From Scenedesmus sp. PABB004 (lineage: Eukaryota): a DNA stretch of 64,000 nucleotides. Of the stretch, positions 8,141-62,300 are shown in pieces. A program made the translations under genes and the position numbers. The stretch lies in assembly GCA_014905635.1 (NCBI GenBank), contig JABVCE010000014.1, positions 124,001-188,000 of the forward strand, read 5' to 3'. How positions within the stretch are numbered: the stretch's first letter is position 1; each line of letters opens with the position of its first letter. Under the pieces are notes generated by a model. The model searched no databases. It saw only the letters and a list, made by a program, of their open reading frames with translations, and was not told the DNA's origin.

Positions 8141-11100
8141 TCACTTTGTGCGCGCGAGCCTGGCGGCGGTGGTCATCGCGAGCGTGCGATAGAACTTGTA
8201 GATCCCAGTCTCGACGGGCAGCGGGTTGGCCCAGTTGTACGTGTGCGTGTCTGCCGCCGGCGCAGCCGGTCGCGCGAGGCGGGCGGGGCGGTCGCGTTGG
8301 CGGCGGGCGCGCTGCGCGCGCGCGCGCGCGCAGCCAGCCCCCCCCCCTCTCCCGCGCGCCGCACCGGTGCAGTGGCTGGCGCCCTCGTACTGCACGAAGC
8401 TCAGCCGCGGGTCGGCGCTCAGCGGCGTCGCCGGCGGCTTGCCCCAGCCGCCGCCGGCCCAAGCATCAAGGCTCCCTTGGGTAAAAACGACGGCCCCCGC
8501 CGCCTTGACCAGGGCCAGTGTGTCCGTCATCAGCTTCGGCGCCGCGAGCGGCGGCACGCCGGCGCCAAACACGGCGTTGCAGTCGGACGCGAGCAGCGAC
8601 GCGGGCACGTCGTACGCCGGCGAGACGCCCGAGGTGCTGCCGTCGCAGGGCAGGCCGGAGCTGTAGACCGACCCCTGCGTGCAGCACTGCGCGGCGCGGC
8701 GCGGGGCCGCGGCGTCAGACCCAGCCCACGCGACCGCGTGGTCCGGACCATGCTGCCCCTGGTTCACAGCCATGCCCTGAACCCTGCCCTGAACCCTGAA
8801 CCCTGCGCGGCCGCGCCTGGTAGGAGTAGGCCACGATGTCAGGGTCGTCCGAGATCGTGACGAGCGGCGACACCTCGGCGCACCACGACGCGGAGCTGTT
8901 GCTGCTCCAGTAGGCGTACGCCTGCGCGACCGCGTCCAGCGGCGACCCGCCCGGCGCGGCCGCGCCGGCGGCGAGGATGCGGCACGTCACGTTCATGGTG
9001 CCGAAGAGCGGGAGCTGGTCGTTGAGCTGCGGCCGCGGGCGCGGGCGCGTCAGCGGGCGCAGCCACAGCTCAGAGCGCTCTAGCGCTCGACTTGGCTCGG
9101 CTCGGCTGAGCTCCGCTGAGCTCCGCTCCGCTCCGCTCCGCTCAGGTCAGCTGGGCTCGGCTCGGGTCACAGCCTGAGGGCAGGCCAGCCTCGGCGCACC
9201 TGCACCCAGTTGTGGAACTGGCCATATATGTCCATGTAGGCTGCAAAGCCGCCCGCCTCGTCCTTGAGCACAGCGGCGGCGGAGCTGTTGCAGATGCGGA
9301 ACGTCTGCACGAGCTTCACCCGCCCCGCGGGCGTCTTGCTCAGCGCCATCGCCTCGTCGAGCCCGGCGCGCGCGACCGCGACGCACCTGGCGCGGGCGCG
9401 GCGCGGGCGCGGCGGGGCGGCTGTGGGCGCCGGGGCCGGCGCCCCCGCGCGGCGGGCGGCGCGCCGAGGCCCGTGTGCGCGCGCGCGCTCTCCCGCGCGG
9501 CCGCGCGCGCCGCCGGCGCCGCACTTGTTGCCGCCCCCGGCGCGCAGGCTGTCGGCGATGACGTTGTGATACTGCTGCGACGTGGCCGCCCACTGCTGGG
9601 TGCCAAACACATAGTCCACCGGCCTGCGCCGCGCACGCGGCGGTGAGCGGACGGGCCCACGGCGCGCGCGGGCCACGTGCGCGGGGGTCGCACCCGCTCG
9701 CGGCGATGGCGGAGTTGAAGACCGTGGGCTTGGCGACGCGGTGATACGTCGCGAGCATGCCGCCTGGTCCGAGGAGCAAGCCCCGAGGGGGCGGCCCGGG
9801 CGGCGGCGGCGCGGCGTGTGAGGCGAGCGCGCGCGAGAGCGCACGCGCGCGCGCGGGCCCGGCCCGGGCGCCGCGCACCGTACGAGCCGCCCAGGACGAT
9901 CGCGGGCGTGGCCGCGGGCACGCGGCGCGACTTGCGCACGGCGGCAAGCACGGTCGCGGTGTCTTCGATGACCTGCTCCACCGTCAGCCATTTGTACTCT
10001 GGGGTGGGCAGCTGCCCGCTCGGGGGCACCGGGAAGGGCACGGACTCGCCATAGTAGCTGCGCGCGCGCGCGGCGCGGGCGGGCGGCGCGGCGTGCCGCG
10101 TGACGCGCGCGGCGGCGGCGGCGGCGGAGGCGGGAGGGGGAGCCCTGCGCGCGCGCGAGCGCGGCACGGCGCGGCGCGGCCGCACCGGTGCTCGACGAGC
10201 AGGACGAGCGCGTTGAGGCGCGCCGCGTTCTCAAACACGATCGGCTGCTTGGGCACGCCGAGGGGGCCCTCGTTGCCGAGGAACACGACCACGTTACCGA
10301 GCACCGCCTGCGCGCGCCTGTCGCGCGGCCACGTCGCGTCGCACACCCAGTAGACCTGCGCGGCGGCGGCGGCGGCGCGGTGTGTGGCGCGGCGCCGGCG
10401 GGCGCCGCTGCGCGGGCGCGGCCCGCGGGAGGAGTGGGGCCCTGCCTCGCGCGGGCGCGGGCGCGGGCGCGGGTGCGGGCGCGCGCGCCTGGTTGAAGGT
10501 CCGGCGGTCGGCGGGGTTGAAGTGGTCGAGGCGCTGCGTGAAGTTGAAGTCCTCGCACTTGAACTGCTCAAACACCGGCGGCGCCGCATTGGCGGCAGCG
10601 TACGCCGAGTTGAGAGTGTAGCCGCCGGCGGGGTCAAACGCCTTCGCGCAGTACCTGGCGCGGCGCGGCGCGGCGCGGCGGCGGCGGCGGGGGTGAGTGG
10701 CCGGCGGCACGCGCGGCCGCGCGGCTGCGGGGCCGCACCCCGGCAGCGCGGCGCAGAGGCCGCCGGTGCCGTTGATCGCGGCGACGAGCGCCGCCTCGAG
10801 CTCCGGCGCGCCCCAGTACTCGACGAGCGAGGTGTGGTTGCACACGCTGCCGGCGACGACGCTGTCCGCGGCAAAGGTCTGCAGGCGGCTGGTCGTGACC
10901 ACGACGTAGCCGCGGTACAGCAGCGCGCCGTAGCGGGCCCGGATGTCCTCGTCGAGCCAGAGGCTGATCTTGGAGTCGGAGAGGCACTTTGGCACGCGCG
11001 GCTCGCCCGCGGGCGTGGGCGCGGTCACGAGCTGGGTGATGGTGAAGAAGATGCTCCGCGGCGGGCGCGGGTGGTGGCCCTTGCCGCCACCGTGCGCGAC

Positions 11101-16941: not shown

Positions 16942-16976
<35 letters not shown>

Positions 16977-17804
16977 CGTGGGCGCGGGCGGGCGGGCGGG
17001 CGCGGGGGGGCGCGGGCGCGGGCGGGCGGGCGCGGGCGGGCGCGCGGGCGGGCGGGCGCTGCGCGCAGGGTGGCGGGTCCCCGGCGCGCGCGCGCGCGCG
17101 CGCGGCGCCGCACCCGCGGCCTGCGCGGCCATCACGGCGCCCCAGCAGAAGCCGAGCGCGCCGAACGAGGACACGCCGCGGCCGCGCAGCGCGTCCACGA
17201 CGGCGGTCACGTCGCGCGAGACCGCGTCCCACGTGTGGCTCTTGATCCAGCCGGGCAGGTCGTCCTCGGGCTTGGGAGGGAACCTGCGCGCGGTGCGTCA
17301 CGTGTGCCGCAGCGTGGGGGGCGTGCGTGCGGGCGGGCGCCGGCCGGCGCGGCCGGCAACCTAAACCCTATGCCCCCCCCGCGCGCGCGCGCGGGCCGCG
17401 CGCACCTGTCGAGCGACCAGGGCTTGCCGCGGAACACGTCCGGCGCCGCCACGACCGCGCCGGTCGCCGCGGCGAGGCGGTCGCAAAACTGCTGGAACTG
17501 CGCGGCGCGGCAGCGGGGGGCGGTGGCGGCGGCGCGGGCGCGTCGCCGGCGCGCGCGCGGCGTCGGCGCGAACGGCCGGGCTCCCTCCCGCCCTGGCCCT
17601 GCCGCCAGGGGGAGTCTCCCTCTGCGCGCGGCGCGCCTGGGGGTAGGCGAAGCCAAAGATGTCGTAGATGGCCACGATTCCCGCCTTGGCCCCCGCCGGG
17701 CCGGTCACGTAGACGGCCGCGCCGCCGTCGCCGATCGGCTCGAACGCGCCCACGGGCGTGTAGTCCGCGACCACCGGCGCGCCCGCGGCGCAGCAGACGT
17801 CCAT
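16624..17804 (-). CDS. Dienelactone hydrolase family protein
   Basis: MDVCCAAGAPVVADYTPVG, IVAIYDIFGF, VAAPDVFRG, nucleophile motif GFCWG, GMIHGFCGARGD; 3 introns. Confidence 0.9.
16943..16974. repeat. Poly-G tract (~32 nt) in a DLH intron
   Basis: Uninterrupted G run; shorter C/G runs at ~759-774 and ~879-895. Confidence 0.85.
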
Positions 17805-18384: not shown

Positions 18385-21300
18385 TCAGTCGGTAAAGTTG
18401 AACGGCGTGAACGCGTAGCCGTCGCCGCGATAAAACTTGTTCTGGAACTCCACCCAGTGCAGGCGCAGGGCGTGCAGGAAGGCGGAGAGGCTCTCCATGA
18501 CCATCAGCACGCCCATGGTCGCACAGAAAAACACAAAGAACCCTGCGGGGCGGGGTGGGCGGGGGTTTGGGGTTAAGGGAGGTCACGCGTCGGGCGGGAG
18601 GGCTCAGTGTGGTGCTGAGGGTTTCCGAGGGAGCAGGGCAGCCGCCGGGGCCGGCGCGGAGGGAGCGCCGCGCCGCGCCGCGCCGCGCCGGATGCCGCCG
18701 CCCGCGCCGTGCGGCCAGCGCCCGAGCAGCAGCCCGGCGCCCCGGCAGCAGCCCCGGCGACCCGGCGGCGGCGGCGCGGCGCGGGTCGCCCACCGATCAT
18801 GATTGCGAGCGGGCTGTTGAGGCCGATGGTCATCATGAGCACGCGGTCGTAAAAGACGGCGCTGAGCTGGCTGTGCGCGAGGCTGAGCGCCCAGAGGCGC
18901 AGGTACGACGCGGTGTTGGAGACGGCGCCGAGCACAAACTCGATCGTGTGGATCATCTGGTGCACCACGACCTCGCCAAAGTCAAACCCGCCGCCGTGGC
19001 CGTGCCCGCCGTGCCCGCCGCCGCCGTGGTCGTCGGCTGCGCCGGGGCGCGCGCGGGGCGGGGCGCGCGCGGGGCGGGGCGCGGATCTCGGCGGGCGCCG
19101 TGGGGGAGCGAGCGCGCCGGGCGGGGCGGGGAGCCGCGCGGCGCGCGCGCGCGAGAGCGGGGGGCGGCGCGCGCACGCACCCGCGTGCGAGCTGCTGGCG
19201 TGCCCCGCGACGAGGCCGCGCCGCGCCTCCTCGTCCTCGTCGCCGTCCAGGCCGACCATGTCGTATGCGCGGCGCTGCGCGCGGCGCGGCGGGGCAGGAC
19301 GGGGCGGCGGTGAGCCGGCCGACCGCGCGCGCGGGCTGTGGCCCGCCCGCGGGCTCCGCTGCCGCCGCCACGCGCGGCCCCGCCGCCGCCGCCCGTAAAC
19401 CTGAGCCCTGCCCGCGCGCGCCGCGCCTGGTTGAGCGACGCCTCGTGGCGCTTCTTGAGGATGAGCGGCTTGGGCAGCAGCATCCACGGCACCGCCGCAA
19501 ACGCAACGAGCAGCAGCACCACCTGCGGTGCCGCGCGCGCGCGTCCGTTCGTCGGCTCCCCGCCGCCGCGCCCGCTCCTCCCTCCCTCCCTCCTGCTCCT
19601 CCCGCGCCGCGCCCCAGCTCGCCGCGCCCGCCGCGCCCGCCCACCTGCAGGCCGGCCTGGCCTGGGAAGAGGTAGCCGGCCTCGTCGACGGTGCCTGGCG
19701 AGAGGAACATGTAGATCATCACGTGGTACAGGTCCGTCTTGGCCGCGCTCAGCCACTTGTACACGATCGCCAGGCAGAGGTAGCCAAAGAGGGCGTTGAG
19801 GAAGATCATCTGTGGGTACGGGGTGGGTTGAGCGGGCGGGGTGGGCGGGCGGAGAGGGCGGTCGGGTGGTCGTGAGTGCGCGCGCGAGTGCGCGTGCGTG
19901 CAGTTGGGCGGTAGCGGGCAGGCGGCGGCGGGGCGGGCCCGCCCCGCCCCGCCCGGGCCGGGCCGGGCCGGCGCCGCAGCGCGCGGCGCCGCGCGGGCGC
20001 GCGCCTGGGGCACGAACTCGCAGAGCGTGGAGAGCCTGTCCCTGAAGTAGAGGTTGTTCCAGAGGGACATCACGATGCCCAGGTTCATGTGCACCACGCC
20101 CAGCAGGATCGACCTGCACCCGCGGGGCGGGGCGCGGGTGGGCGGGTGGTGTGAGGGCGCGCGCCGCCGCAGAGGGGGCTTCAAGCGTGGCTCCGAGGGG
20201 CCCCCGAGAGAGCCCCGAGCCTCCCCCCTCCCCCTGCAGCGCTGGACCCATGGCCTCACTCACATCTTCATCTTCATGCTGTTGAGGAAGGGCAGCTCTG
20301 CGGGGGAGATGGGGCGGAGACACGGGCAGGCGTGCGGGGCGGGGAGAGGCAGCGCTCAGGGGCGTGCCGGCGCGCACAGCGCGCTGCGCGGGCCGCACGC
20401 TGTGCGCAGGCGGGGCGCCGGCGCCCGCGCCGCGCGGCGCGCACCCGACTTGGTGCCGTGCCACACGGGGTCGACGCCGAAGGGGTAGGGCGGCGCGCCG
20501 GGCGGGAACGCGACCTCGCCGCCGAGCTCGGGGCACGCGCGCATGTCGGTCACGTCCTCGCGCACCGACCCGTTGACAAAGCACTGCGCAGCACGGCGGC
20601 GGGACGGGGCGGGGGCTCGGGCGGGGCTCGGGCGGGGCTCGCGCCGCCCCTGCCGCCGCGCGCTCCCCCACCCCGCCCGCGGCCGCCGCCCCGCGCCCGC
20701 GGCCGCCGCCGCCGCCCGCCGCCCGCCGCGCGCCGCCCCGCGGCCGCGGCGGCGGCGCCGCCCCGCGCCCGCGCGCGCTGCGCACCCGGGCGCGCGTGGG
20801 GCCGAAGAGCAGCGTCATGGGCATGCTGAAGAACTCGTTGTATATGAGCCCCGTGAAGATGGAGAACGTGGCCATGAGCACGATGCAGTAGCGCCCGCCA
20901 AAGAGCATGCCGAAGATCTCGTCCAGCTGGGAGCGCAGCAGGGCCTTCTCGTTGACCAGCAGGTAGGACGCAAACGCCATCATGACCAGGCCGTGCCCAA
21001 AGTCGCCTGCCGCGGGCGGGGCGGGTGGTGCGTGGTGTGGGCGGGCGCGTGGTGGCGTGAGTGTGTGGGGTGAGTCGTACACATCAAGTGAATGAGTGAG
21101 TGCGTGCGTGCGTGAGTGAGTGAGCGAGCGAGTGCGAGCGGGCGGGCGGCGGTGCGGGCGCGCGTGGCGAGGCGTGGCGGCGCACCAAACATGACGGCGA
21201 AGAGGAAGGGGAAGGTCACGATGGTGAAGACCGCGGGGTTGACCTCGCGGTACCGGGCCACGCCGTACGCGTCCACGATCGCCTGCGGGCGGGAGGAGGT

Positions 21301-23553
21301 GGAGGAGGGAGGAGGAGGGAGGAGCAGGTGGGCGCGCCGGGGGAGAGGGGGGAGGGAGGGAGCGGGGCGGCGCGGCGACGGCGCGCGCGCCCGGCCGCAA
21401 CGGCGCCACGCTCGCAGGGCCGCAGCGCTCCGCAGCTGCGCCCGCGCGGCCGCTGCGCATGCTGCGCGCAGTGCGCGCTGCGCGCTGCGCCGCGCCGCGC
21501 CTGGAAGCACTCGGTGAACATGTCGGTCTTGAAGTACGTCGGCGGCGGGTCGCCCGTCGACAGGGGCTGCAGCACCGTGTGCACCTGCACGGCGCGCCGG
21601 GGCGGTGCGCCGGGGCGGCGTGGGCGGCGCGCGCGGCCCTCGCGCGCGCAGCGCGGCTGTGCGCCCCCGCCGGCGCAGCGCAGCGCGCGCGCAGCGCGCG
21701 GGCGCGCGCCTGGGTGGACGACGCGTGCGCGGCGAGGCGCAGCGCCTCGTGCACGCGCGGCTTGGCGTTGGTGGGGCACCACGCCTCTGCGACGAGGACC
21801 TTGCGGCTGGTGTCCATGCTGAGCTTGTTGAGCGTGTGGTGCACCGCCTTCTCGCGCTTGACCTGCGCGATGGGCGTGTGTGGTTGCGGACGTGGTGTTG
21901 GTTGGGGCCCGGCGGCGGCTCCCCGAGGGAGGGCTCGTCGCTCAAGGGCTGTGGCCCGCCGCCGAGCTGTGCGGCCCCCGCGCCGCCCGCTTCCCCCCCC
22001 CCCCCTCTCACACACACGCACGCATGCACGCACGAACACGCAGCCGCCCACCTGCGTGGCCCAGCCGTCGAGGTTGAACGCGATGTTCTGCAGCACCGCC
22101 TCGCGGTGGCGCTCGCCCGCCTCGATCGTCGCGTGCAGCTCGCGCAGGCGCGCGGTGACCTCGCCGTGCATCGCGCGCTGGCGCCCCGGGTCCTCGGGGA
22201 AGGGGTAGCGGTTGGCAGCAAAGGCCTCGCAGATCTGGGGACGCGCGCGGTCGTGTGTGTGACACGAGCGAGTGACGGCGCGAGCGAGACGGAGTAGCGG
22301 CGTAGGCACGGCGGGCGGGCGGGCGGGCGGGCGGGCGGCGCGGGCGGGCGGGCGGGCGGGCGGGCGGGGGCGGGCGGGCGGGCGGCGTCAGGGACCGGTG
22401 CAGCCGTCCCGAACGACCCCGCCGCCGCGCGCGCCGCGCCCCGGGCCTCCCTCCCGCGGGGCCTGCCGCCGCCGCGCCCGCCGCGCCCGTCGCGCGCCCT
22501 GCCGCCGCGCGTGCGCCCCCGCGCGCGGCGCACCTTGAGGACCTTGGTCCGCGCGCGCTCGCCGGCGTAGAAGACCACAAAGACGTGCTTCTCCTGCTGC
22601 TCCCCGCTGCCCGGGTCGCGCACCGCGCCGACGGGCGTCTGGCGCAGGAACATGTTGCCGCGCGTCGCGCGGAAGAGCAGGCGCTCAAAGCCGTTCAGCT
22701 TCTCCTGCGGGATGAGCCCCGCGACAAAGCCCAGCCGCCCCGCGCCCGCCGCGCCCGACTGCGGCGGCCGACGGCGGCGGCCGGCGCGGCGGCGGCGGCG
22801 GCGTGAGGCGCGCGCGGGGGCGTGCGCGGGCGGCGCCGACGCGCTGCCCGCGCGCCGCGTGCGCCCGCGCCGCCGCACCGGCAGCGCGCTCTCGAGCAGC
22901 GGCGCGTCGATGGCCTCGGGCACCGAGTAGGAGCGCTCAAAGCTCTCCGCCTGCGCGTCGATGCGGGCCTGGTCGAAGAAGCTGCCAGCCTTCTCCAGCA
23001 CGAGCTGCAGCTCCACGAGCTCGTTGTAGCTGCGCGCGAGGCGCTCGCTGTTGCCGTTGACCTCCAGCATCTCCGCCTCCAGCTCGTCCAGCTTGCCCTG
23101 CGCGGCGGCGGCGGCGGCGGCGGCGCGGCGGGGCTCGCGCGGGGCTCGCGCGGGCTCGTGCCGCTGCAGCAGCTGCGGCGCGGCGAGGCGCTCGTGCTGC
23201 GGCGCGGCGAGGTGCCCGTGCTGCGGCGAGCGCGGCGCCCGCGCCCCCCGCGCCGCGCGCACCTCCAGCTCGTCCATGTCCACGGTCTTGTCGGGCAGTG
23301 AGCGGATGCCCACAGTGAGGCCGCCCTTCTCAACCTGCTCGCGGGGAGTGCGCGCAGCGGCAGCGGCGGCGGAGCGCGTTGGCGCCGCCGAGCCGCGCCG
23401 CGCCGCGCCGTGGCCCACAGCCGCGCGGCGGCGGCGCGGGCCGTCGCCCGCGGGCAGTGGCGGCCAGGGGGGCCCCCGCGGCGCACCTGCTCGTGGAAGA
23501 AGCGGATTTTGCGGGCCATCTCGTCGCAGCGCTTCACCTGCGCGCGCGCCGCG

Positions 23554-23586
<33 letters not shown>

Positions 23587-24843: not shown

Positions 24844-27800
24844 ATGGCCGCCAAGATCAAGGTCGCCAACCCCGTGGTGGACCTGGACGGCGATGAGATG
24901 ACCAGGCGCGCCGCCGCCGCGCCGGGGTCGCCGCGCTGTGGCGGTTGGCGCCGGCCGCCGCCGCTGCGTGCCCACGCCGCCCGGCCGCCCCGCCCCCGCA
25001 GGGTCATCTGGACCATGATCAAGGACAAGGTGCGCCGCAGCAGCAGCGGCAGCGGGAGCAGGAGCCGCAGCAGCCAGCCAACGCGGCGCAGCGCGCTCGC
25101 CGCTGGGCGTGACGCGCCCGCGCGCCGCGCTGCGCCTGCGCGCCGCGCCGCGCAGCTGGTGCTGCCGTACCTGGACCTGGAGATCAAGTACTTTGACCTC
25201 GGCCTGCCCAACCGCGACGCGACCGACGACAAGGTCACGATCGAGGCCGCGGAGGCGATCCTGGTGCGGAGAACGCGGCGCGGCGCGGCGCCGCGCCGCG
25301 CGGCCGGCCGCGCCCCGCAGGGCCCGCCGCCGCTCACCGCTTCGCGCCGCGCCCTCCCTCCCCGCGCCGCCGTCGCCGCCGCCGTGCTGCTGTGCTTCTG
25401 TGCGCGCGCAGAAGTACAACGTCGGCATCAAGTGCGCGACCATCACGCCCGACGAGGCGCGCGTGGAGGAGTTCAAGCTGAAGAAGATGTGGAAGTCGCC
25501 CAACGGCACCATCAGGCGCGCGGCGCGGCGGCCCGGGACGCGCGGCGGACGCGCGGCAAATGCACGCGCGGACGCGCGGCAAAGACGCGCGCGCGCGCGC
25601 GGCCCGCCCAACCGGCCGCAAGCTGCGGGCGCAGCGCCGTGGCTGCCCAGCGGCCGGCGCTGCCGCCTGGGCGTGGGAGGCGCCGGGGCGCGCGCGCGCC
25701 CGCGACCCGCGGCCGGTTGGGCCGGCGGGCGGCGCCGGGTGGCGGCGCGGCGGGGGGGGGGGGCCGCGCTGCGCGCGCGGCGGCGCGCGGCAGCGTTCCG
25801 CCGAGGCCCGCGCGTCCCGTTCTCTGGCGCGCAGGAACATCCTCAACGGCACGGTGTTCCGCGAGCCGATCGTGATCAGCAACATCCCCCGCCTCGTGCC
25901 CGGCTGGACCAAGCCCATCGTGGTCGGCAGGTGCGGTGCCCGCCCGCCCTGCCCTGCGCCGCGCGGCCCGCGGGCGCTGACCGCCGCGCCGCGCCGTGTT
26001 GACCCGCTGCGCCGCGCCGACCCGCCCGCCCCTGCGCCTCCCCTGCGCCCCCGCAACTCTCCCCGCAACGCTGCCAGGCACGCGTACGGTGACCAGTACC
26101 GCGCGACCGACCTGCGCGTGCCGGGCCCCGGCCGCGTGCGCATGATCTACGAGCCCGCCGACGGCTCCGCGCCCCAGGAGTGAGCGCGGCCCCCGCGCCG
26201 CCGCACGCCGCCGCCGCGCCGCCCGCCCCCCGCCCGACCCCCGCCTTGCCACCTGCCCTCCTCCCGACCAACCGGCCCACCCAACCGCCCTCCCGCCCGC
26301 CCGTCTCCCAACCGGCCCACCTCCCGCCTCCCGCCCAACCAGCTATGAGATCTTCACCTTTGACGGCCCCGGCGTCGCGATGGGCATGTACAACACCGAC
26401 GACTCCATCCGCGGCTTTGCCAAGTCGTGCTTCGAGTTTGCGCTCGCCAAGCGCTGGCCGCTCTACCTCTCGACCAAGAACACCATCCTCAAGGCCTACG
26501 ACGGCCGGTGTGGCGGCACAGCGCGGCGGCGCGGGGGCTGCGGGCGGCGGCGCCGCGACGCCGGGCGGGCGGCGGGCGGCGGCGACGCGGGGCGGGCGGC
26601 GGGGCTGGGGCGCCGTGCGTGCGCCCACGGCCGCCCCACGCTGCCGCTGCCCGCAGCTTCCTGATGATCTTTGCCGAGATCTACGAGGCGCAGTACAAGG
26701 CTGCGTACGAGGCGGCGGGCATCTGGTACGAGCACCGCCTCATCGACGACATGGTCGCCCAGGTGCGTGGGGTGTGTGGGGCGCGGGAGGGCACACGCAC
26801 GCGCGCCTCGGTGGCGGCGCGGCGGCCGCGGCGCGCAGCAGCGGGCGCGCGCCGGGGCGCCCGGCGGCGCAAGGCGGCGGCCGGGCGGCGGGGCGCCGGC
26901 CGGGCGGCGGCCGAGCGCGACCCGCCCGCCCGCCCGCGCGCGCGCGCGCAGTCGCTCAAGTCGAGCGGCGGGTTTGTGTGGGCGTGCAAGAACTACGACG
27001 GCGACGTGCAGAGCGACATCGTCGCGCAGGGCTACGGCAGCCTCGGGCTCATGACCAGCGTCCTCGTCACGCCCGACGGCAAGACCGTGGAGGCCGAGGC
27101 CGCGCACGGTGCGGCGGCGGCGGCGGCGGTCGCGGTCGCGGCGCGCTGCGGGCGGTCGCGGCGGCACGCCCCGGGCGCGCGCTCAGCCGCCGCGCCGCGC
27201 GGCGCGGCGCGCAGGCACGGTGACGCGGCACTGGCGCGAGTACCAGAAGGGCAACGCCACGTCCACCAACCCCGTGGCCTCCATCTTTGCCTGGACGCGC
27301 GGCCTCGCGCACAGGCGCGCAGCTGCGCGGGCACGCAGCTGCGCGGGCGCGGGCGGCCGGGCGCAGCGCCCGGGCAGATGATCGGGCGCGCGTCGAGGGG
27401 GCGCGCGTCAAGGGCGCGCCGCGCGCGCCGCGCGCGCCCGCAGGGCCAAGCTCGACAGCAACGCCGCGCTCGCGGAGTGGTGCGACGCGCTCGAGGCCGC
27501 TGTGATCGCGACGATCGAGGCCGGCGGCATGACCAAGGACCTCGCCATCTGCGTGCACGGCACCACCAAGGCGCGCGCCGCCGCGCGCGCCGCGCTGCGT
27601 CCGCCGCCGCGCTGCGTCCGCCGCCGCGGGCCGCCGCCGCCGCGCGCGCCAGGCGCTGCGCTCTGCCCGGCGCGTCGGACGCCTCGCGCGCGCCCACCGG
27701 CTCACGCGCGTCCGCGTCGCCGCCGCCGCTGCGGCGGCGCGGCCTGCGTAGGTCACGCCGGACCAGTACCTCAACACCGAGGCCTTCATGGATGCAATCA

Positions 27801-28517: not shown

Positions 28518-30020
28518 TCAGCGCCAGACCTTCACCGTGCCGTCCACGGAGCACGTGAGCAGGCACGCCTCGGTCGGGTGCGCGGCGGCGCCGCACACGA
28601 CCGAGCCGTGCGCCTGGAACGCGCCCACGAGCGCCGCGTCCACCAGCTCCCAGTAGCACACGCGGCCTGCGCGCGGCGCGCGGCGGCGGCGTCGGCGCGC
28701 CGCCCGCCGCCGCGCGCGCGGGCGCGGGGCCGCCGCCGCGGCAGGTGCACCGTCGCTCACCGTCCTCGCTGCAGCCCACCACGTGCTGGTCGTCGGCGAG
28801 CAGCGCGCAGGCCATGCGCGTGGCCTCGTGCGTGTGGCCCCGGTACGACGCGAGCAGCTCGCCGGCCTGGATGTCGAGCAGGCGCAGGCACGAGTCGAGG
28901 CACGCCGCGAGCACGCACAGCCCGTCGTGCGTGAGCGCCAGCGCCGACACGGGGTGGTGCAGCTCGTCCGTGTACGTGCGCCCCATGCGCACGTCGAAGC
29001 GGCGCACCGTGCCGTCCACGCTCGCGCCGAGGATCGCCGGCCCCGCCGCGACGACGCTCGTGACGTCGTCCTGCGCCGCCGCGCGCGGGCGCCCGCGCGG
29101 CGGCGCGCGCGCGTGGGCGGCGCGCGTGCTGGGCGCGCGCGGGCAGCGCGGCGCCGACGCCCCACCGCCGGCAGCGCTGCCACGCGCGCTGGCGCTGCAG
29201 CTGCCACCGGCGCTGCCGCCGGCGCGCCTTGAAGTCGCGCATCGTCTGGATGGGGTCGATGTTGCGGCTGCGGCAGTCCCACACCTTGACCGCCTGGTCG
29301 GCGCCGCCCGTGACGAGCACCTCGTCGCCCGCCGCGTGCACCACCTGCGCGGCCGCCGCGGCGCCGCGGCTGAGCCCCTGCGCCCGCCGCCGCTGCTGCC
29401 ACCTCCAGTCGTAGCAGCGGCAGCTGAAGCGGCGACCGACGCAGGCGCACCGTGTTGATGGTCGCGTCGTGGCCGCGGAACTTGCGCAGCGTGCCGCCGG
29501 TCGCGACGTCCCAGAGGAACACCTGCTTGTCGCCGCCCACGGACGCCATCTTGCTGTTGTCGACGCTGACCGACACGTCGCGCACCTGGCGGCCCCGCCG
29601 CCGCGCGGCGCGCGCGCGCGGAGGCGCGGGCGTCGCCGCGGCCCCGCCGGGCGCGGTGCCGCAGGCGCTGCGCGCGCGTCCTGCGAGCGCGCGCGCACCT
29701 CGTAGCCGTGGCCGGTGTACACCTTGATTCCCAGCCCCTTGTGCGGGTTCCACAGCCGCAGCGTGCGGTCCTGCGAGCGCGGCGGCGGCGCGGCGTCGGC
29801 CGCCGCTGCCGTCGCCGCCGTCGCTGCTGCCGCCGCCGCTGCCGCCGCCGCTGCTGCCCCGGCGCCGTGCTTGCAGCCAGGGCCCTGGCCGCGCCTTGCC
29901 GCAGGAGACGCAGTAGGTGCCTTTGGGATTGAAGCGCACCGCCAGCGCGGCGCCCTCGTGGCCGGACAGGCTGTACACCAGGCTGGAGGGCAGCCCCGGC
30001 CCAGGGGCGGGGTCGTCCAT
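28518..30020 (-). CDS. WDR83: WD40 repeat protein WDR83/MORG1 homolog
   Basis: LSGHEGAALAVRFNPKGTYCVSCGK|DRTLRLWNPHKG, YTGHGYE|VRDV, LWDVATGGTLRKFRGHD, WDCRSRNIDPIQ, SVDGTVRRFDVRMG, LLASYRGH; 5 introns. Confidence 0.88.
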   Translation of the reverse strand: MDDPAPGPGLPSSLVYSLSGHEGAALAVRFNPKGTYCVSCGKARPGPWLQARRRGSSGGGSGGGSSDGGDGSGGRRRAAAALAGPHAAAVEPAQGAGNQGVHRPRLRGARALAGRARSACGTAPGGAAATPAPPRARAARRRGRQVRDVSVSVDNSKMASVGGDKQVFLWDVATGGTLRKFRGHDATINTVRLRRSPLQLPLLRLEVAAAAAGAGAQPRRRGGRAGGARGGRRGARHGRRRPGGQGVGLPQPQHRPHPDDARLQGAPAAAPVAAAAPARVAALPAVGRRRRAARARPARAPPTRARRRAGARARRRRTTSRASSRRGRRSSARAWTARCAASTCAWGARTRTSCTTPCRRWRSRTTGCACSRRASTRACACSTSRPASCSRRTGATRTRPRAWPARCSPTTSTWWAAARTVSDGAPAAAAAPRPRARRRAARRRRRRAPRAGRVCYWELVDAALVGAFQAHGSVVCGAAAHPTEACLLTCSVDGTVKVWR

Positions 30021-37418: not shown

Positions 37419-40400
37419 TCACGCGTAGAGCTCGCGCACCGCGCGCGCCGAGATGCGGCTCAGCAGCTGCGCCGTGACCTGGGGCAGCACCTCGCGCGCG
37501 ACCGTCGGCAGCACGGGCAGCAGCTCGAGCAGCAGCCCGGGGTCGGGCCCGCCGCCGCTGAGGCTGCCCTTGGTGAGGAAGTTTACGATCTTGACCACGT
37601 TGTCCACGACCTGCCGGTCCTCCTCGCTCAGCGCTGGCGACAGCGGCACAAACGCCTGCCGCGCGCCCGGCAGCAGCACGGGCACGCGCACGCCGGAGAG
37701 GCCGAGGCGCTGCACCACCGCGACGAGCTGCTCGCGCGAGAGCGCGTCGATGGACTTGACCACCTCGTCGAGCAGGAAGGTGCGGAAGAAGGCGCCCTCG
37801 GGCGAGAAGATAAACCTGGCGGGGTTCAAGGGTTCAAGGGGTTCGAATGAGCGGTTTGAACGCGCAACCCTGGGCCCCGTGTGCATTCGGAGCAGCGCGG
37901 GCCCGCCTCGTGCCTGGGAGGGAGCGCAGCGCGCGCGCGCGCCGGCCGCACCTGAGCGCCTCGCGCAGCCGGCCCTGGCTGTCCAGCGTGCTCTGCTGGC
38001 GCAGGTCGAAGCGGTTGGCGGGCAGGCCGAAGAGGCCCACGCCGGGGCCGCCCGCGACCATGCCCGTGCCGTCGCCAAACGCGCCCGCCGGCGCCGGCAG
38101 CGGCAGCGGCAGCGGCAGCGGCAGCGGCAGCGGCAGCGGGAGCTGCAGCGGCGCGCCGCCAAAGATGCCGACGCCGCCGCCAAACGGCCCGCCGCCGCTC
38201 GCGCCGCTGCCGCCGCTGCTGCCGCTGCTGCTGCTCCCTGCGCCGGCGGCGGCGCCGCCGTCCATGTCGCCGCGCGACGACTGGCTTGCGACGGCAAAGC
38301 TCTCAAACGCGTTGAGCAGGTCGATGAGCCGGTCAGCGTCAAAGATGCCCGCCTTGCCGTACACCATGTAGCGCAGCGCGGCCTGGGCGCGGGCGCGGGC
38401 GCGCCGCATGCGTCGTCGCGTCAGCGCGGCGCGCGGCGGCGGCGCGCGGCGGGGGAGGCGGCGGGGGGAGCGGCGACGGCGGGGAGCGCAGCGCCCGCGC
38501 GGCGCGCGCCTGCAGGCGCGGCGACTCGTCGGTGAGCAGGCGCTTTGCGATGTACCTGCGGCGCGGCGCGCGGCGCGTCGGCCCGCGCCCGCCCGCCCGC
38601 GCGCCCGCCCGCGCCGGCCCCGCCGCCGCCCGTGCCGCGCCGCCGCGCGCCGCGCGCCGCGCGCCGCGTCTCACGGGTACGCCTCGTCCACGAGCGCAAA
38701 CCGGGGGTCGCCCACGAGCGCAATGCCCTCAAGCACGCCGATCGCGCGGATGATGAGCGCAAAGTAGGGCGGGATCCTGCGGGACCGCGGCGGCGGCGGG
38801 CGTTATTGGTGTTATAACGCTGTGACGACGGTTGAGCTTCAAAAGGTGTACGAACGCGGGGCCGCGCCCCGCACACCACGCCACACTCCCCCACACGCCC
38901 ACACGCGCCCACACGCACCCACACACCCAAACACCCACACAAGCACGCCCACGCACACCCACCTCCACACCCGATCCCCACACGCCCACACACGCCCACG
39001 CACACCCACGCCCCCACCTGAAGGGGTAGTCAAACGTGATCTGCGCCAGGTCGGCCGCGAGCTCCTGGAAGTTGATGTTCTTCGCGCCGCCGCCCTCGAG
39101 CGCCTGGTCAAACACCTTGGCCAGCACCGGCAGGATGGGCTTGAGGTCCGTCCCGGGCGGGATGAACTGCAGCGTCACAAAGTCCTGTCAGTGACAGCGG
39201 TGTGGGCGGGGAGGGGGAAGCGGCGGCGGCGGGGCTCGGCGGGGCTCGGTGCGCGCGCGCGCGCGGGCGGGCCAGCGCCGCCGGCCGCGGCGCGCGGCGG
39301 CGCCCCGCGAGCCGGGGGCACGCCTGCCCGCACGCGATGGCTCGCGCGCAGTCCCACGCGCGCGCCCACCTGCACGATGGCCTCGTAGTCCCTGTGAATG
39401 AGGTGGCTGATCGCCTCGATCATGCCAAACTTGATCTCATCGTCAACCTGGGTGGTTGATTCGTTGGTGGTTGGTGGTTGATGGTTGATGGTTGGTGGGG
39501 GCGGTGAGGCGGCGCGGCGGCGGTGCGTGCGTGCGCGCGCGCGCGCGCGGCGGTGGCAGGGCGCACCCGCCCCCCGCCTGGGCGGGGCCGGACGGCCGCC
39601 GCGCCCCGCCTCGCGCCCCCGCCCCGCACACAGCGCGCGCCCACCTGGGTCATCAGGCCAAAGTCGAGGATCGCCAGCCGGCCGTCGGGCGTGCGGATGA
39701 GGTTGCCTGCAGCGCAGCGCGCGCGGCGGCAACGGCGGCGGCAGCGGCTGCACGTCAGCGACGCCGGGGGCCCGCGCGCCACGCCCTGCGCCCCGCGCGC
39801 CGCCGCTGCCCCAGGGCCGCGCCCGGCCCCGCCCACGCCGCGCCGCGCACCGGGGTGTGGGTCTGCGTGAAAGAAGCCGGTGTCCAGCAGCTGCTTGAGG
39901 TAGCTGATCACGCCGATGTTCACCAGGTCGCCCACGTCGGCGGCCTTGGACTGGCTCAGCTTCTCGCCCTCCAGCCAGCTCACCGTGAGCACGCGGCGAC
40001 TCGTGAGCTCCGAGTACGTCGTCGGCACAACGATCTGTGTGCGCCGGCGGGGGCGCCGCGCGGGGGGCATGCGGGGGTCGGCGGCGCGCACAGACCGCCG
40101 GGCGGCGCAAAACCGGCGCCGCGCGCGGGGGCGCAGACCGGCGGCGCCGGCCGCGCGGGCGGCGCCGGCAGCCAGGCGCGCCTGCGGGAGGTCTGCCGCC
40201 ATCTGCGCGGCAAAGAGCGTCGCGTTCTGGCCCTCCTTCACATAGTCGAGCTCCTCAAAGAACCGCGCCGCCCACTCGTCCAGCAGCGCGACGACGTCGG
40301 TCGTCACCTGCGCCGCACGCGCGCGCGCACACACGCAGGGCGGGGCGGGGCAGGCGCGCGCGCGTCGGGCGGGCGGGGCTCCCCCGCCGCGCGACCAGCG

Positions 40401-42451
40401 GGCGGGCGGGCGCGCGCGCGCGGCGCCGCCGCGTGCGCCGCGCGCGCCGCTGTGCCGGACCTGCGGGAACTTGCGCAGCGCGAGGCCGAGCTTGCGGATG
40501 ATGTAGAGGTCAACCGTCACCGTCTCCTGCGGCGTTCAGCAGCAGGGGTTCAGCAGGGGTTCAGGGGTGCAGGTCGAGCGCGACGGGGATCGGGGCTCGG
40601 GGCTTTGACGGCCGCGGCGCGGCGGCAGCGCTGCGCGCGGGGCCAAGCCCCGCGGCGGCAGCGGGGCGCGCCTCCTCACCAGCACGCCCGGGCGCTGCAC
40701 CTTGACCGCCACCTCCTCACCCGTCTTCAGCCGCCCCCGGTACACCTGCCGGCCGGGCGCGGCGCGCGCGGGCGCGCGGGCGCGCGGGCGTGAGCGCGGG
40801 GGGCGCGCCGCGCCCCTCACGCAGCGCGCGCCCGCCGCCCTGCCCCCGTGCGCACCTGGCCGAGGCTGGCCGCCGCGATGGGCTCGGGCGTGAGGTCGGC
40901 GTAGATCTCATACCACGGCGCGCCGAGCTCGTCGTTGATGACCTGGCGCGGCGAGAGCAGGGGCGGGCAGGCGGGCGGCCGGCGGCGCGCAGGGCTGTGA
41001 GGCTGTCTGCGCGCGCAGCGGGCGGCGCGGCGAGTGCGCTCGGCGGCCGTGTGCGGCCGCGGCCCGCGCGCGCACCTGCATCGCGACGGCGCTGTCAAAC
41101 GAGGGCACCTTGTCGCAGAGCTTCTGCAGCTCGTTCATCGCCGCGGGGCTGAGGATGTCCGGCCGGATGCTGCGCGCGCGCGCCGCGGGTGCAGCGGCGG
41201 TCGGCACCGGCCGCGCGCCGGCGCCGCGCCGCCGGCGCCGCCCCGCCGCCCTCCCCCGCCGCGCGCCCCCGCGCCATTGCGCCGCCGCGCGTCGCTGCCC
41301 CTGCCGTGCCGAAAGCGGCGGCGCACCTGAGCGCCTGGCCGAGCTTGATGTAGGCTGGGCCGAGGCTGGTCACGATGTCACGCAGCTGGATCGCGCGGCG
41401 GACCTCATTGTCCTTCAGCTTGCCTGCGCGCGTGGGCGTGTGCGTGTGTGCGTGAGCGGACGCGGGCGCGGCGACCGCGCGGCGGCGCCCGCCCCGCCCC
41501 GCCCACCGCCCACGCCGGCCGCTGCTATAGCTGCGCCGCGCCGCCGCGCCGCGCCGCCGCGCCGCGCCGCGCCGCGGCGCACCGCGCGCGACGTCGCTGG
41601 CGATGCCGCCGAGGAAGGAGCCGGCGATGCCGAGCAGCTGCGTGATGCGCGTGATGACCGCGGTCGGCCGCGTGTCCCAGTATCTGCATCGACACGCGCG
41701 CGGCAGACGACGCGGGAGGGTCGGCGGGCCGCGGGCGCCCGCGCCGCGCCCGCCGCCGCGCGCCGCCGCGCGCCGCCGCCGCGCGCGCGCCCCGCCGCCG
41801 CTGCTGGGCGGGGCCGGAGCGCCCCACGCACTGGTTGATGGCGTCCGGGTCGTACGCGAGCGGCAGCGCGGCGTCGAGGCCCTCGTCCTGGGCCTCGGTC
41901 ACGAGCCGCATGCGCACGCCGGCGGACGCAAAGTCGCTCTCGTCGAGGTTGGCGCCGCGGAAGCCGGCCATGAGCACCTTGAGCTGCTCGTCCTCCTCCA
42001 TGCTGCTGCGCATCTGCGGGCGCGGCCCCACGCGCGGAGCGTGCGCGCGTTGGTGCGCGGAGCGGCGTGCGCGCGCCGGCGCGGCGCCGGCGGGCGGCCG
42101 ACCGCGACCGGCGCGCGCGGGGCGGGCGCGCGCCTCGCGCATGTTGGCCGACATCTGAGACACGGACGTGGACTGCGGCGGCGCCGCGCGGCGCACGTGT
42201 CGGCGCGGGGCAACGCCTGGCCGCGACGGCGCGCGCTGCCGCTCGCGAGGGCGCCGCCGCTGCCGCGGGCAATTGCTGCGCCTGCCGCCGCCCGCACGGG
42301 GCCGGGCGCGGCACAGGAGCACGCTGCGATCGCCGCACACCTTGGACGCCGCGCGTGCGGCCACAGCGCGGCGCGCCAGGCCCGACTGCTGCTGGCCAGG
42401 CGCGGGCGCGGCGCCCCGCCGGCCCGGCGCCTGCGCCCGCGAGCCCAGCAT
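37419..42451 (-). CDS. ABC1K6: Plastid ABC1/UbiB atypical kinase, ABC1K6-like
   Basis: LPLAYDP, LRDIVTSLGPAYIKLGQALS|IRPDILSPAAMNELQKLCDKVPSF, PIAAASLGQ|VY, VAVKVQRP, DEWAARFFEELDY, YLKQLLDTGFFHADPHPG|N, ILDFGL; about 17 introns. Subfamily assignment by recalled similarity to plant ABC1K6. Confidence 0.9.
38096..38137. repeat. (GGCAGC)n hexamer repeat encoding (LP)n in an ABC1K exon
   Basis: ggcagcggcagc... gives LQLPLPLPLPLPLPLPAP on the minus strand. Confidence 0.8.
38872..39016. repeat. Degenerate CA-rich (cacacgcc) low-complexity tract in an ABC1K intron
   Basis: Repeated ccacac/cacacgcc units. Confidence 0.7.
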
Positions 42452-42492
42452 GGCGCGGAGCTGCGGCACGAGGGGAAGCGCGGGCGGCCGCG

Positions 42493-43476: not shown

Positions 43477-43496
43477 ACCTTGGACGCTGCGCGTGC

Positions 43497-48104: not shown

Positions 48105-48145
<41 letters not shown>

Positions 48146-58099: not shown

Positions 58100-58101
58100 A
58101 T

Positions 58102-58394
58102 GCGCGCGCCGTGTCTGCACAGCCCCCATGCGGGCGCGCCCGCCTTGCCGCGACACGACGGCTGTACTCTAGCGAGTGGCGCGCGGACGCCGCATTGGCG
58201 CGCGCGGCGGACTCTGATCGGCTGCCTGGAACGCTGACCAAAAGCGGGAGGCAACATACTCTCGGTTGCCGCGCGGCACACGCCGCCGCCCGCCCGTCAG
58301 AGCCCGTGCGCGGCCGCCCTGCTGAAGCTGCTTATGCTTGATGTACACGCCGGCCGGGGTCGGTGCGCGTCGGCACCCCCGCAGCGCTGTGGCC
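58102..58394 (-). repeat. Block C' (inverted copy of 43497-43788)
   Basis: Reverse-complement colinearity with block C. Confidence 0.93.
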
Positions 58395-59350
58395 CCGCCC
58401 TCCTCCTCCTCGTCGCGCGCCGCTGCTCTCCCTCCAGCCCCCAGCCGCCTCCCTCCCGCTCCTCGGACACCGTGGGGCGGGCGCCGCCGCGGGCGCCTCC
58501 GCGCTCGTCCTCCTCCTCCTCTGCCTCCTCAAGAGCCGCGCGCGCGCGGGTCGCTCAGCCAAGTGCAGTTCTCTGGGCCCCGGCGGCGCCGTGCACCGCG
58601 CTGGGCGTGGTGAGGGGCGCCACGGGGACCACACCGGTCGAAAACACACAACCGCCACGACGGCGACACGGGGGGCCGGCACGGGGCGGCGGCGGGCGCG
58701 CCGGGCGCGCGCCCGCCGCCTGCGCGCTCCTCCGATGGTGGAACGCGCGTGCAAGGCACGCACACACGGCACGAGGCCAACGGCGACAGAGGGACCCACC
58801 ACCACCACCAACGCGGCATCGAGCCGCACGTTTTGCTGCACACACACACACGCCTGCGCGCCGCGCTGCGCGCGCGCGCGGGCTGGTGGGTGGTGCGGGG
58901 TTGGGAGCGGCGCCGGCGGGCGCCGCGCGCGGCGGGCGCCCCGCCGGCGCCGCATGCAGCCACACACACGCACAGTGCAGCCCCCACGTTCGCGTTGCAC
59001 GCGGTCGCAGCGGTCAAGGAAGTCAGTGCGGCCCTACGCTGGGGGCGGTGCGTTTGCAGGAGCAGCAGTGAGGGAGCAGGCTCTGGGAAACACGCACGCC
59101 ACACGCCGGTCGGCCCCCCGATAGCCCACACCGCAACGCTACCAGCGACTGACGACGGACGGACGACAAGCTCGGCGGCGCGCGGCGCCGCGGCCGTCGC
59201 CGGCCGCGCCGCGCGCCGTACCCAGCGCCCGGGGGCGCCTAGTCAAATGAAGCGAGGCCGCGAGTCAACTGCGCCGCCCGCGGCGGGCTGGCAGGCCGCG
59301 CGCGCGCCGCGCGGGGGCCGCCGCCGGCGCTGCCGCCGTGCCGCCGCTGC

Positions 59351-62300
59351 TCAGGCGTAGGGCGCGTCGAGCAGCGCCCACTCAAAGATCCGCTCGTACG
59401 CCTCCGCCGCGCCGTTCCAGCTCGAGTCGCGCTCCATGCCGCGCCGCTGGATGCCCTCAAAGTCCTGCGCGGCGCGGCGCGGCGCGGGTGCGGGGTAAGG
59501 ACGCGGGCGCGCCGGCGCGCCGGCAGCCGCCCGCGTGCAGCAGGGCCTCCGCTGCGCGTGCCAGCCCCACCGCCGCGCGTGCCAGCCCCACCGCCGCGCC
59601 GCGCCGCGCCGCGGCGCACCTTGGGATAGTCGCGCAGCGTCGCGAGCGCGAGGCCGGTCGCGTGCATCAGCCCCGCGGCGTCGCAGCTGCCAAACGTCCA
59701 GCCCGTGCCGCTCGGGCCGGTGGGGTCAAAGTCGATGACCGTGTCGCGCAGCCCGCCTGGGCGCGCGCGCGGCGGCAGCGGGGGCGCGCGTCGGCGCGGG
59801 CAGCGGCGCGGGGGCCGGAGGAGCGCGCACGCCCCGCGCGGCGCGGCGCGGCGCGGCGCGGCGCGGCGCGGCGGCGGGGGGGCCAGGCGGGCAGCGGCTA
59901 GCTGCGAGCAGCGGCGGGCCGGGCGCACCCGTCGCGTGCGCCACGGGCACGGTGCCGTAGGCCATCGCGTAGAGCTGGTTGAGGCCGCACGGCTCAAACC
60001 TGGCGGCACGCGGCGGCGCGGGCGGCGGCGCGGTCGGCACGCGCGGCGTGCGCACGCGCGGCGCCGCCGCACGCAACCGGCGCGCCACGGCCCCGGGCCC
60101 GGCGAGCCGCCCCAGGCGGCCGGCCGGCCGGCCAGGCGGGGCCGCGCACCTGCTGGGCATGAGCAGGATGTCGGCGGCGGCGGTGATCTTGTGGCTCATC
60201 GCCACGTTGAACCCCACCCACCCGCGCGCCTGGTCGCGGTACGCCGCCTCCAGCCAGCGCAGCCCGTTCTGCGCGCGGCGGCGGCGGCAGGGAGCGCGGC
60301 GGCGGCGGGGCGACGGCGCGGCGTGGGCGGGGCGCGCCGCCGCGGCGAGGCGGCAGCGGGCGCGCGCGCGGCGTCGGCGGCGGCGCCGTCGGCCGCACCT
60401 CGAGGTCTGTCGTGCCGGTGCCGAGGCACACGAGCTGCACGCCCTGGCTCATCATCCACGGCGCCGCCTGCAGCACGATGTCGGCGCCCTTCTGGTAGTC
60501 GAGGCGGCCAATGAAGGCGATGAGCGGGACGTCGGGGTTGACCGGCAGCCCCAGCTCCGCCTGCAGCGCCGCCTTGCACGCCGCCTTGCCCGCCTTGAAG
60601 CTGCTCGCGTCGTAGTTGACCGGCAGGTGCTGGTCGACCGCGGGGTTCCAGTCCCTGCGCGGCCACGGGCGGCGCGGTCGGCGTCGGCGCTCGCGCCGCC
60701 CGGGGCGCAGCCGCCCGCGGCCGGCGCAGTGCTGCGCCCCTGCCGGCCCCGCGCGCGCGCGTCGCGCGCGCCGCGGCTCACGAGTCGTCGATGCCGTTGA
60801 CGATGCCGTTGAGCACGGGGCCGCGCGCGTTGAGCATCCCCTCCATGCCCCACCCGCCGAGCCAGGTGCGGATCTCCTCCGCGTAGCCGGGGCTCACCGT
60901 CACGATGCGGTCGGCGACCGCGATGCCCGCCTGCGCGCCGCGGGGCGGGCGGTGTGCGCGTGTGCGTGCGCGGGCGCGCGCGTCAGGGAGAGAAGGAAGA
61001 GAGAGAGAGAGAGTGAGGGGGGGAGAGAGAGTGTGTGAGGAGCTGCGCGCGGCGCGGGCCGGCGCGGCGCGCGCGCCTTGAGCGTGTTGACAGAGCGCCC
61101 CTCCTCCGCGTACGAGCCCTGCCGCAGGTGCGGGGGGTACTGGTACTCCAGCGCGTCTGCGCGGCGCGCGGCGCGGGCGCGGGCGTGGGCGCGGGCGTGG
61201 GCGCGGGCGGGGGCGTGGGCGCGGGCGCGCGCGCGGCGCGGCAGGGTGCGCGGCCGGCCGCCGGCGGCGCGGGCGGCACTCACGGTACCAGTCGGCCGGC
61301 AGGCCGAGCGAGGCGTAGGTGGAGGGCGGGAAGACGCCCTGGTGGCGCAGGTTGTGGATGGCCATGACGCTGCGCGCGCGCTCGTACACGCCGTGCGGGC
61401 GGTACTTGGCCGCCAGGTACACCGGCACGAGCGCGGCGTGCCAGTCGTTGGCGATGAACACGCAGTCCTGCCCGTACAGGCCGTCCGGGCCGAGCGGCAG
61501 GTTGAGCGGCGCCTCGAGGCCCGCGAGGCTCAGCAGCATGTAGCGGAACTGCGCGGCGGCGCGGCAGCGGCGGCGCGGCGCGGCGGCGGCGGCTGTGAGC
61601 GGGCGGGCGGCTCGGGGCGGGCTGCACCGCGGCTGCCGGCGCCAGCGGCCGCCGTTTGCCGCTGCCGCTGCCACCGCTGTCGCTGCCACGGCTGCCGCTG
61701 CTGCCGCTGCTGCCGCTGCTGCCGCTGCTGCCGCTGCTGCCGCCGCCGCCGCTGCCGCTGCCGCTGCTGCCACGCGCCGCGCGCGGGCGCGCCGCACCTG
61801 GTTGTCGCCGTACACGCCGTGCTTGTCGGCGTAGATGCCGCCGGGGCGCGGGAAGGCGGGGTGGTCGACAAACACCCAGTCGACGCCGCGGTGCTCGTGG
61901 TGGAAGAAGCCCACCTCGGCGCCCATGATGTCAAGACGCATCTGGGCGCGGCGCGGCGCGGCGCGGCGCGGCGGCGCGAGCGGGCGGGGCGCGGCGGGGT
62001 GAGCGGGCGGGGCGGGGCGAGCGGGCGTGCGGGCCGGGCAGGGCAGGCAGGCGGCGGGGGCGTGCGCGCGGCGGGGGCGCAGCGCGGCGGGGGCGCTGCG
62101 CGTGCGCGCACCCCGGTGTCGATGGCCTCGGGGTAGTTTGCGTAGCGCGGCGTGACGACCATGACGCGGTGCCCGCGCGCCGCGAGCGCCTGCGGCAGGC
62201 TGCCCAGCACGTCGCCGAGGCCGCCCGTCTTGCTCCAGGGCGCGACCTGCGCGGCGGGTGGCGGCGCGCCGCCCCGCGTCGGGGCTGCGCCGCTGCTGCA

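Follow-up and report, generated by a model that had tools for sequence, protein, structure and literature searches.

Frequent GC-AG introns in a strict AG/GCGCG donor context in a 64-kb window of the GC-rich green alga Scenedesmus sp. PABB004

Which donor dinucleotides do introns use in a genome under extreme GC pressure? The question is raised by a stretch of 64,000 nucleotides from the green alga Scenedesmus sp. PABB004 (contig JABVCE010000014.1, positions 124,001 to 188,000 of the forward strand), hereafter the window. For this stretch an original prediction had listed 19 introns that begin with GC instead of GT, all in the donor context AG/GCGCG (the slash marks the exon-intron boundary), and had related them to GC pressure. 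Plant introns are of the GT-AG type in 98.7% of cases on average, as stated in a passage of PMC6310983, and a passage of a recent preprint puts GC-AG introns at 0.3-2% in plants and metazoans (bioRxiv 10.1101/2024.10.30.620910). The window is 78.6% GC, contains no Ns and is even in GC along its length, and a table in PMC12571836 gives the assembly as 39.8 Mb with 78.5% GC and 7,092 genes, which supports the GC-pressure part of that interpretation. In the verified genes of the window, GC reaches 95% at third codon positions and 86% in intron interiors. The window is densely filled; its exons are short, with a median of 102 nt, as are its introns (92-319 nt, median ~150), and by our counts GC-AG introns constitute roughly 16-23% of the introns in it.

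The AG/GCGCG motif is present at 19/19 listed coordinates on the predicted strand, with five sites on the forward strand (24906, 25516, 27315, 27571 and 30987) and 14 on the reverse strand, and every one of the 19 introns starts with GC and ends with AG. Over both strands, AGGCGCG occurs 77 times against 100 ± 9 expected under a first-order Markov model, and AGGTGCG 43 times against 20 ± 4 under the same model. Motif enrichment was rejected as evidence, AGGCGCG lying below the Markov expectation; given that it is not over-represented, the evidence must come from gene structure.

Three genes, coding for NADP-IDH (IDH), VHA-a and ABC1K, were resolved with a protein-to-genome spliced aligner of our own, which charges the same penalty for GT and GC donors and was also run with GT only and with all 16 donor dinucleotides. 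The homologs aligned were eight non-self proteins of 120 listed for IDH, seven of 19 for VHA-a and eight of 120 listed for ABC1K. The IDH of the window corresponds, with 100% identity over all exons, to P0025, a 466-aa NCBI protein that carries the name of Scenedesmus sp. PABB004. This protein requires 13 introns, with exactly one GT/GC-AG solution per junction, of which nine are GT and four GC. The aligner reproduced this exact mapping, and each of the four GC sites was chosen by all of the non-self homologs; with any donor dinucleotide allowed, 24906, 25516 and 27315 were chosen by 8/8 and 27571 by 6/8. VHA-a has 18 introns, 14 with GT and four with GC donors. Another VHA-a intron, near 19180, was tried as a GC candidate and rejected, since the homologs gave shifting GC donors there and inspection shows the GT donor CGG/GTGCGTG. 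The ABC1K site at 42133 is supported by three homologs (P0177, P0182 and P0176) whose N-termini reach it, three others starting downstream, and the product spliced at this site is collinear without gaps with the N-termini of Chlamydomonas and Chromochloris. Most of the homology-tested sites were also kept with all 16 donor dinucleotides allowed. When only GT was permitted, the mean scores in the three resolved genes dropped (1661 to 1514, 3112 to 2958 and 2618 to 2490) and junctions were shifted to poor GT sites, adding or deleting conserved residues.

Homologous proteins thereby indicate that a GC donor is needed at 13 sites (IDH 4, VHA-a 4, ABC1K 3, heme oxygenase 1, WDR92 1), and to this extent the original claim that GC donors are required to restore conserved protein sequence is borne out. 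Homology support is weaker at 29894 and 61076, and at the four remaining sites (8816, 10488, 17636 and 29227) coding and signal models predict the splicing. For the WDR83-like gene, the test set comprised 36 of 150 listed proteins, generic WD40 proteins only; the neighbouring GT introns were chosen by 31/36 and 34/36 of them, similar to 29894. When the large WDR83 exon was used to search a representative library, the matches were giant multi-WD40 proteins and three fragments of exon size, and not one of them spans a junction. In starch synthase I (SS1), the exon downstream of 61076 begins at residue 350 of 4hln_A (barley SSI) and the last residue covered by the exon two upstream is 322; the intervening exon of 26 codons fits by length alone, within one residue, and a PDB search with its 26 residues gave no match. 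PDB searches with two exons of the S28 peptidase likewise gave no match, and per-exon Pfam coordinates at the S28, dienelactone hydrolase (DLH) and SS1 junctions were too coarse or empty.

The three resolved genes served to train ab initio codon, donor and acceptor models, in which the coding signal amounts to 1.33 bits per codon. For the local ranking, models trained without the gene in question were used to score all frame-compatible GT/GC-AG pairs lying between the cores of the two flanking exons. At 19/19 junctions the listed GC donor came first, leading the best GT, where there is one, by 15-82 bits (at 10488 there are 0 frame-compatible GT pairs), and in the control the true donor ranked first at 35/36 verified GT introns. 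Acceptor scores were positive at 19/19 listed sites, and the median length was 139 nt for the GC-AG introns versus 144 nt for GT introns. Used as a gene finder, the models were unspecific, predicting 308 introns of which many were antisense or intergenic, and fusing neighbouring genes; this output, which contained 19/19 listed sites, was used only for local ranking and after filtering to the 90 introns with strong coding exons on both flanks. A further GC donor from the gene finder, at 13862 on the reverse strand, has the AG/GCGCG motif and lies in the gene of an MFS transporter.

How frequent, then, are GC-AG introns in the window? They account for 10/46 introns in the three resolved genes, or 11/47 when 42133 is counted, and the former share has a binomial p = 1.7e-10 against 1.2% and 8e-5 against 5%. 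The filtered ab initio set consists of 73 GT and 17 GC introns, 14 of the latter being listed sites. The share originally put at ~15% (19 of ~120) is bracketed by these counts (10/46 or 11/47 in the resolved genes, 17/90 in the filtered set), and the claim of a GC-AG share well in excess of the usual ~1% holds for the window. The listed introns are collected in Table 1.

Table 1. Listed GC-AG introns in the window, with coordinates in window positions and the support for each.
Feature	Position	Strand	Donor or protein position	Support
GC-AG intron, S28 peptidase	8687..8816	-	CAG/GCGCGGC	ab initio prediction only, rank 1, 21 bits above best GT
GC-AG intron, S28 peptidase	10356..10488	-	CAG/GCGCGCG	ab initio prediction only, rank 1, high-confidence set
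GC-AG intron, dienelactone hydrolase	17498..17636	-	CAG/GCGCGCC	ab initio prediction only, rank 1, 37-bit margin, high-confidence set
GC-AG intron, VHA-a	19275..19426	-		5/7 homologs; 4/7 with any donor dinucleotide
GC-AG intron, VHA-a	19810..20004	-		7/7 homologs, also with any donor dinucleotide
GC-AG intron, VHA-a	21283..21500	-	protein position 393, phase 0	7/7 homologs
GC-AG intron, VHA-a	21585..21709	-	protein position 365, phase 0	6/7 homologs
GC-AG intron, NADP-IDH	24906..25001	+		exact P0025 mapping; 8/8 homologs
GC-AG intron, NADP-IDH	25516..25834	+		exact P0025 mapping; 8/8 homologs
GC-AG intron, NADP-IDH	27315..27443	+		exact P0025 mapping; 8/8 homologs
GC-AG intron, NADP-IDH	27571..27751	+		exact P0025 mapping; 8/8 homologs
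GC-AG intron, WDR83-like gene	29071..29227	-	AAG/GCGCGCC	ab initio prediction, rank 1, 28-bit margin; 6/36 WD40 proteins
GC-AG intron, WDR83-like gene	29771..29894	-		28/36 generic WD40 proteins; ab initio rank 1
GC-AG intron, WDR92	30987..31098	+		exons abut at residues 123/124 of 3i2n_A
GC-AG intron, heme oxygenase	35102..35289	-		exons abut at 160/161 of 7cka_A and 170/171 of 7eqh_A
GC-AG intron, ABC1K	38383..38509	-		8/8 homologs
GC-AG intron, ABC1K	40035..40181	-		8/8 homologs
GC-AG intron, ABC1K, N-terminal part	42014..42133	-	GAG/GCGCGCG	3/8 homologs (P0177, P0182, P0176)
GC-AG intron, starch synthase I	60931..61076	-		length fit to barley SSI; ab initio rank 1

The surroundings of the GC dinucleotide are uniform. 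AG stands at -2/-1 in 19/19 GC donors (CAG 12, AAG 6, GAG 1) and GCG at +3 to +5 in 19/19, and the GC donors are thus the local consensus CAG/GTGCG with one change. Among the 36 verified GT donors, 18 have the AG, 22 the GCG and 12 both; in the 73 filtered GT donors these numbers are 31, 54 and 26, and GT donors are mostly GTGCG, as had been predicted. The excess of AG at -2/-1 in GC donors is significant (19/19 versus 18/36 verified GT donors, Fisher p = 7e-5), and it is also found among the GC donors picked by the aligner without knowledge of the motif (10/10 versus 18/36, p = 0.004), so the context rule does not stem only from the selection made in the original prediction. That prediction had spoken of a 'relaxed' recognition of the 5' splice site, a wording that these counts do not support, as the GC donors are confined to the strictest context. 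Closer agreement with the consensus at the remaining donor positions is reportedly a classical feature of GC-AG introns, one that Burset in 2000 and Thanaraj and Clark in 2001 are said to have described.

Within the perfect context, C stands at +2 in 10/22 verified donors and in 19/45 of the wider set, and neutral intron sites show a C/(C+T) of 0.86; the comparison of 10/22 with 0.86 indicates that T is still favoured at +2, but weakly. The GC donors are also biased in phase: 16 are in phase 0 and three in phase 2, phase 1 being absent. The filtered GT introns are divided 36, 18 and 19 among the three phases (p = 0.008). Phase 1 GC donors are missing because the A required at -2 would there fall on a third codon position, where A makes up 1%.

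The orthologous introns of relatives were compared in 13 metagenome loci encoding VHA-a relatives, all aligned with one protein; the loci compared at orthologous introns have 55-64% GC. At VHA-a residue 365 phase 0, which corresponds to 21709, an intron is found in four loci and the donor is GT in L001, L005 and L007; at residue 393, corresponding to 21500, it is GT in 2/2 loci with the intron (L001 and L005). In these less GC-rich relatives the donor at the two positions is thus GT in 5/6 cases, and the exon-end CAG is kept at both positions in all loci that have the intron. The 13 loci contain no intron at the positions of 20004 or 19426, and a tblastx comparison found no synteny in them with the neighbouring genes of the window.

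In our view, these GC-AG introns belong to the ordinary U2 type of the major spliceosome and have been multiplied by a GC-biased change of T to C, which is tolerated only where the rest of the signal compensates; we give this explanation a probability of about 0.75. A strong GC-biased substitution pressure, whether mutation bias, biased gene conversion or both, would convert the T at donor +2 into C, and this C would survive only at donors that otherwise match the local consensus [C/A]AG/G-GCG. The pairing of the exon end, +1, +3 and +5 with a normal U1 would then offset the mismatch at +2, and, with third codon positions at 95% GC in this genome, the A required at -2 would limit GC donors to phases 0 and 2. 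Both the direction of the change, T to C, and a normal U1 and U6 are presumed here.

The frequency of GC donors (10/46) and the atypical nature of the GT consensus GTGCG itself would also agree with a spliceosome that has adapted in this lineage, in which a variant U1, U6 or protein factor would treat GC as a further regular class of donor; variant U1 and U6 had been suggested in the original prediction. For the GTGCG-type consensus of Ostreococcus, Irimia and Roy raised possible small nuclear RNA changes as worth exploring, in a passage of PMC2483917. Flanks of the strictest kind in 19/19 GC donors would however be unnecessary if a C at +2 paired well; the strict context suggests that this C is a cost in need of compensation, which argues indirectly against a GC-adapted U1 and makes such an adaptation unlikely. 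We would likewise give little credence to the wider proposal that the splicing machinery (the U1 5' end, U6 or a 5' splice-site-binding protein) has co-evolved with the 78% GC genome; if it were true, this would be the highest GC-AG share in green plants and algae and a natural system for studying splice signals that follow base composition. A different role, in which selection rather than passive GC pressure keeps the GC donors as weak sites for regulated intron retention, could draw on the Emiliania huxleyi study, which ties GC donors to frequent intron retention in the part bearing on this point (PMC4028052), and on the lower usage of GC-AG sites in plants given in a passage of PMC6310983. 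It appears improbable, given that the GC donors here lie in functionally unrelated housekeeping genes (IDH, VHA-a, SS1 and heme oxygenase) and that relatives mostly have GT at the two orthologous positions.

An artefact, arising from mis-traced exons with real GT donors nearby or from T-to-C errors in the assembly, might be suspected because chance alone makes AGGCGCG frequent (77 occurrences), GC dinucleotides abound throughout, and our own aligner places spurious GC 'introns' in poorly conserved stretches. Restriction to GT nevertheless costs the alignments of each gene 128-154 score units on average and leads to conserved residues being added or dropped, frame-compatible GT alternatives score at most 6.4 bits as donors and are mostly negative, the flanking exons of heme oxygenase and WDR92 join at exactly adjacent residues, and sequence errors would have to strike only the +2 of perfect-context donors; we therefore regard an artefact as very unlikely. 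As for U12-type or otherwise non-spliceosomal introns, nothing besides the non-GT start speaks for them. With the known U12 donor motif as the standard of comparison, the GCGCG at +1 to +5 is a one-base variant of the local U2-type GTGCG, and acceptors and lengths (medians of 139 versus 144 nt) match those of the GT introns, which leaves this idea barely credible.

Several points weigh against the explanation by ordinary U2-type introns under GC pressure, or against the counts on which it is built. Splicing at the listed sites is deduced from protein homology and coding statistics, and at 8816, 10488, 17636 and 29227 it is a prediction of the coding and signal models. The training set of the GC-donor matrix consisted of other GC donors that share the motif, which makes the ab initio score partly circular, although the coding term alone also preferred the listed donor in the cases printed. 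The original prediction may have recognised only GC donors with the AG/GCGCG motif: three other GC donors in the filtered set (32036 and 46196 on the forward strand, 48710 on the reverse) are without it, and these are doubtful. We discarded 32036 as probably wrong, given that the translation shows an in-frame GT upstream. The true number of GC-AG introns in the window may accordingly differ from 19, and the counts cover one 64-kb window, which may not represent the genome. At VHA-a residue 365, the fourth locus with the intron, L006, has the GC donor CAG/GCGAGTG, and the +2 change at this position may thus be older or recurrent. An Rfam search of the 64-kb window yielded 0 RNA genes, including no U1 and no U6.

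A high GC-AG share in GC-rich algae is already known, and it is extended here from haptophytes and pelagophytes to a green alga. The genome of E. huxleyi resembles the present case in being GC-rich and algal, with many GC donors and the canonical AG acceptor; the study reports 56% GC-AG junctions and mis-prediction by GT-centred tools, and its authors attribute the GC donors to GC content, the cause that we also favour (all from passages of PMC4028052). It differs in being a haptophyte with 56-60% GC junctions in a 65% GC genome, as against ~16-23% in 78.5% here, and its junctions are backed by expressed sequence tags and reverse-transcription PCR in that source, whereas ours are predicted from protein homology and coding statistics. 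For the pelagophytes Aureococcus anophagefferens and Pelagomonas calceolata, ~14-17% predicted GC-AG introns are given (bioRxiv 10.1101/2024.10.30.620910), a similar share with similarly short introns and the same explanation, namely high genome GC. These are stramenopiles with few introns per gene, and the passage of the preprint describing them gives no context rule.

Like the ordinary GC-AG introns of plants and animals (~1%, in passages of PMC6310983 and PMC7072748), those of the window are U2-type with an AG acceptor, but their share is 15-20 times higher. Genome GC correlates with splice-site GC, according to a passage of PMC7072748. The donor consensus GTGCGTG of Ostreococcus lucimarinus (Irimia and Roy, 2008, PMC2483917) has the GTGCG core that is common to GT donors here; this species is a prasinophyte with few introns, and 'GC-AG' is absent from the body text of PMC2483917. 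A literature search, with the per-species supplementary tables of PMC6310983 and PMC7072748 excluded, found no report on how common GC-AG introns are in green algae or in this strain.

For annotation, these findings mean that a GT-only gene finder or aligner misplaces ~1 in 5 junctions here, and the misplaced junctions add or drop 5-30 codons in conserved enzymes. The expectation that standard gene finders would mis-annotate such genes is upheld in part: GT-only alignment does misplace junctions and lowers the scores, and no protein named for PABB004 is among the matches listed for the exons of VHA-a (18385-23929, reverse strand) or ABC1K (37419-42600, reverse strand), but the deposited IDH model uses all four GC donors. 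For biology, the window offers a clean, quantitative example of a core splice signal eroded by base-composition pressure, with T and C at +2 near parity in the perfect context (10/22) as against 86% C at neutral sites. A graded comparison would be possible with relatives of 55-72% GC.

The gene content of the window was assigned from Pfam and homologs. It begins with a Vps18-like gene (3 to ~5300, forward strand), followed by the genes for the S28 peptidase, the MFS transporter and dienelactone hydrolase. VHA-a, NADP-IDH, the WDR83-like gene, WDR92, an INSIG-like gene, heme oxygenase and ABC1K occupy the middle. The last part holds a Methyltransf_4 gene (45.3-46.5 kb, forward strand) and an FA_hydroxylase-family gene (47.5-48.8 kb, reverse strand), and the end a pherophorin-like gene, a chlorophyll a/b-binding protein gene (55.3-57.0 kb, reverse strand) and starch synthase I. 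The best Tetradesmus obliquus matches to VHA-a and ABC1K carry the locus tags OEZ85_002783 and OEZ85_002788 and lie on one 6.7-Mb contig, which suggests that gene order is conserved. The INSIG family match consists of one long open exon (32400-33158, reverse strand) covering profile positions 2-210 of 211 with E = 4.8e-11, and this exon is predicted to encode an insulin-induced-gene-like membrane protein in a green alga.

Repeated sequences were also found. An inverted duplication of ~1.2 kb (42493-43648 and 57110-58419), made up of six collinear pieces that are 92-97% complementary, brackets a 14-kb segment; one arm lies directly upstream of ABC1K, the other directly upstream of the LHC gene. 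A tandem repeat at 53018-53441, with four copies of a 96-99 nt unit at 71-100% identity, is close to an exon (53861-54106, reverse strand) that matches the pherophorin domain DUF3707. An unbroken run of ~33 G at 16941-16975, followed by (GCGGGC)n-like repeats, falls within a predicted intron (17113-16929) directly upstream of the last predicted exon of the dienelactone hydrolase gene.

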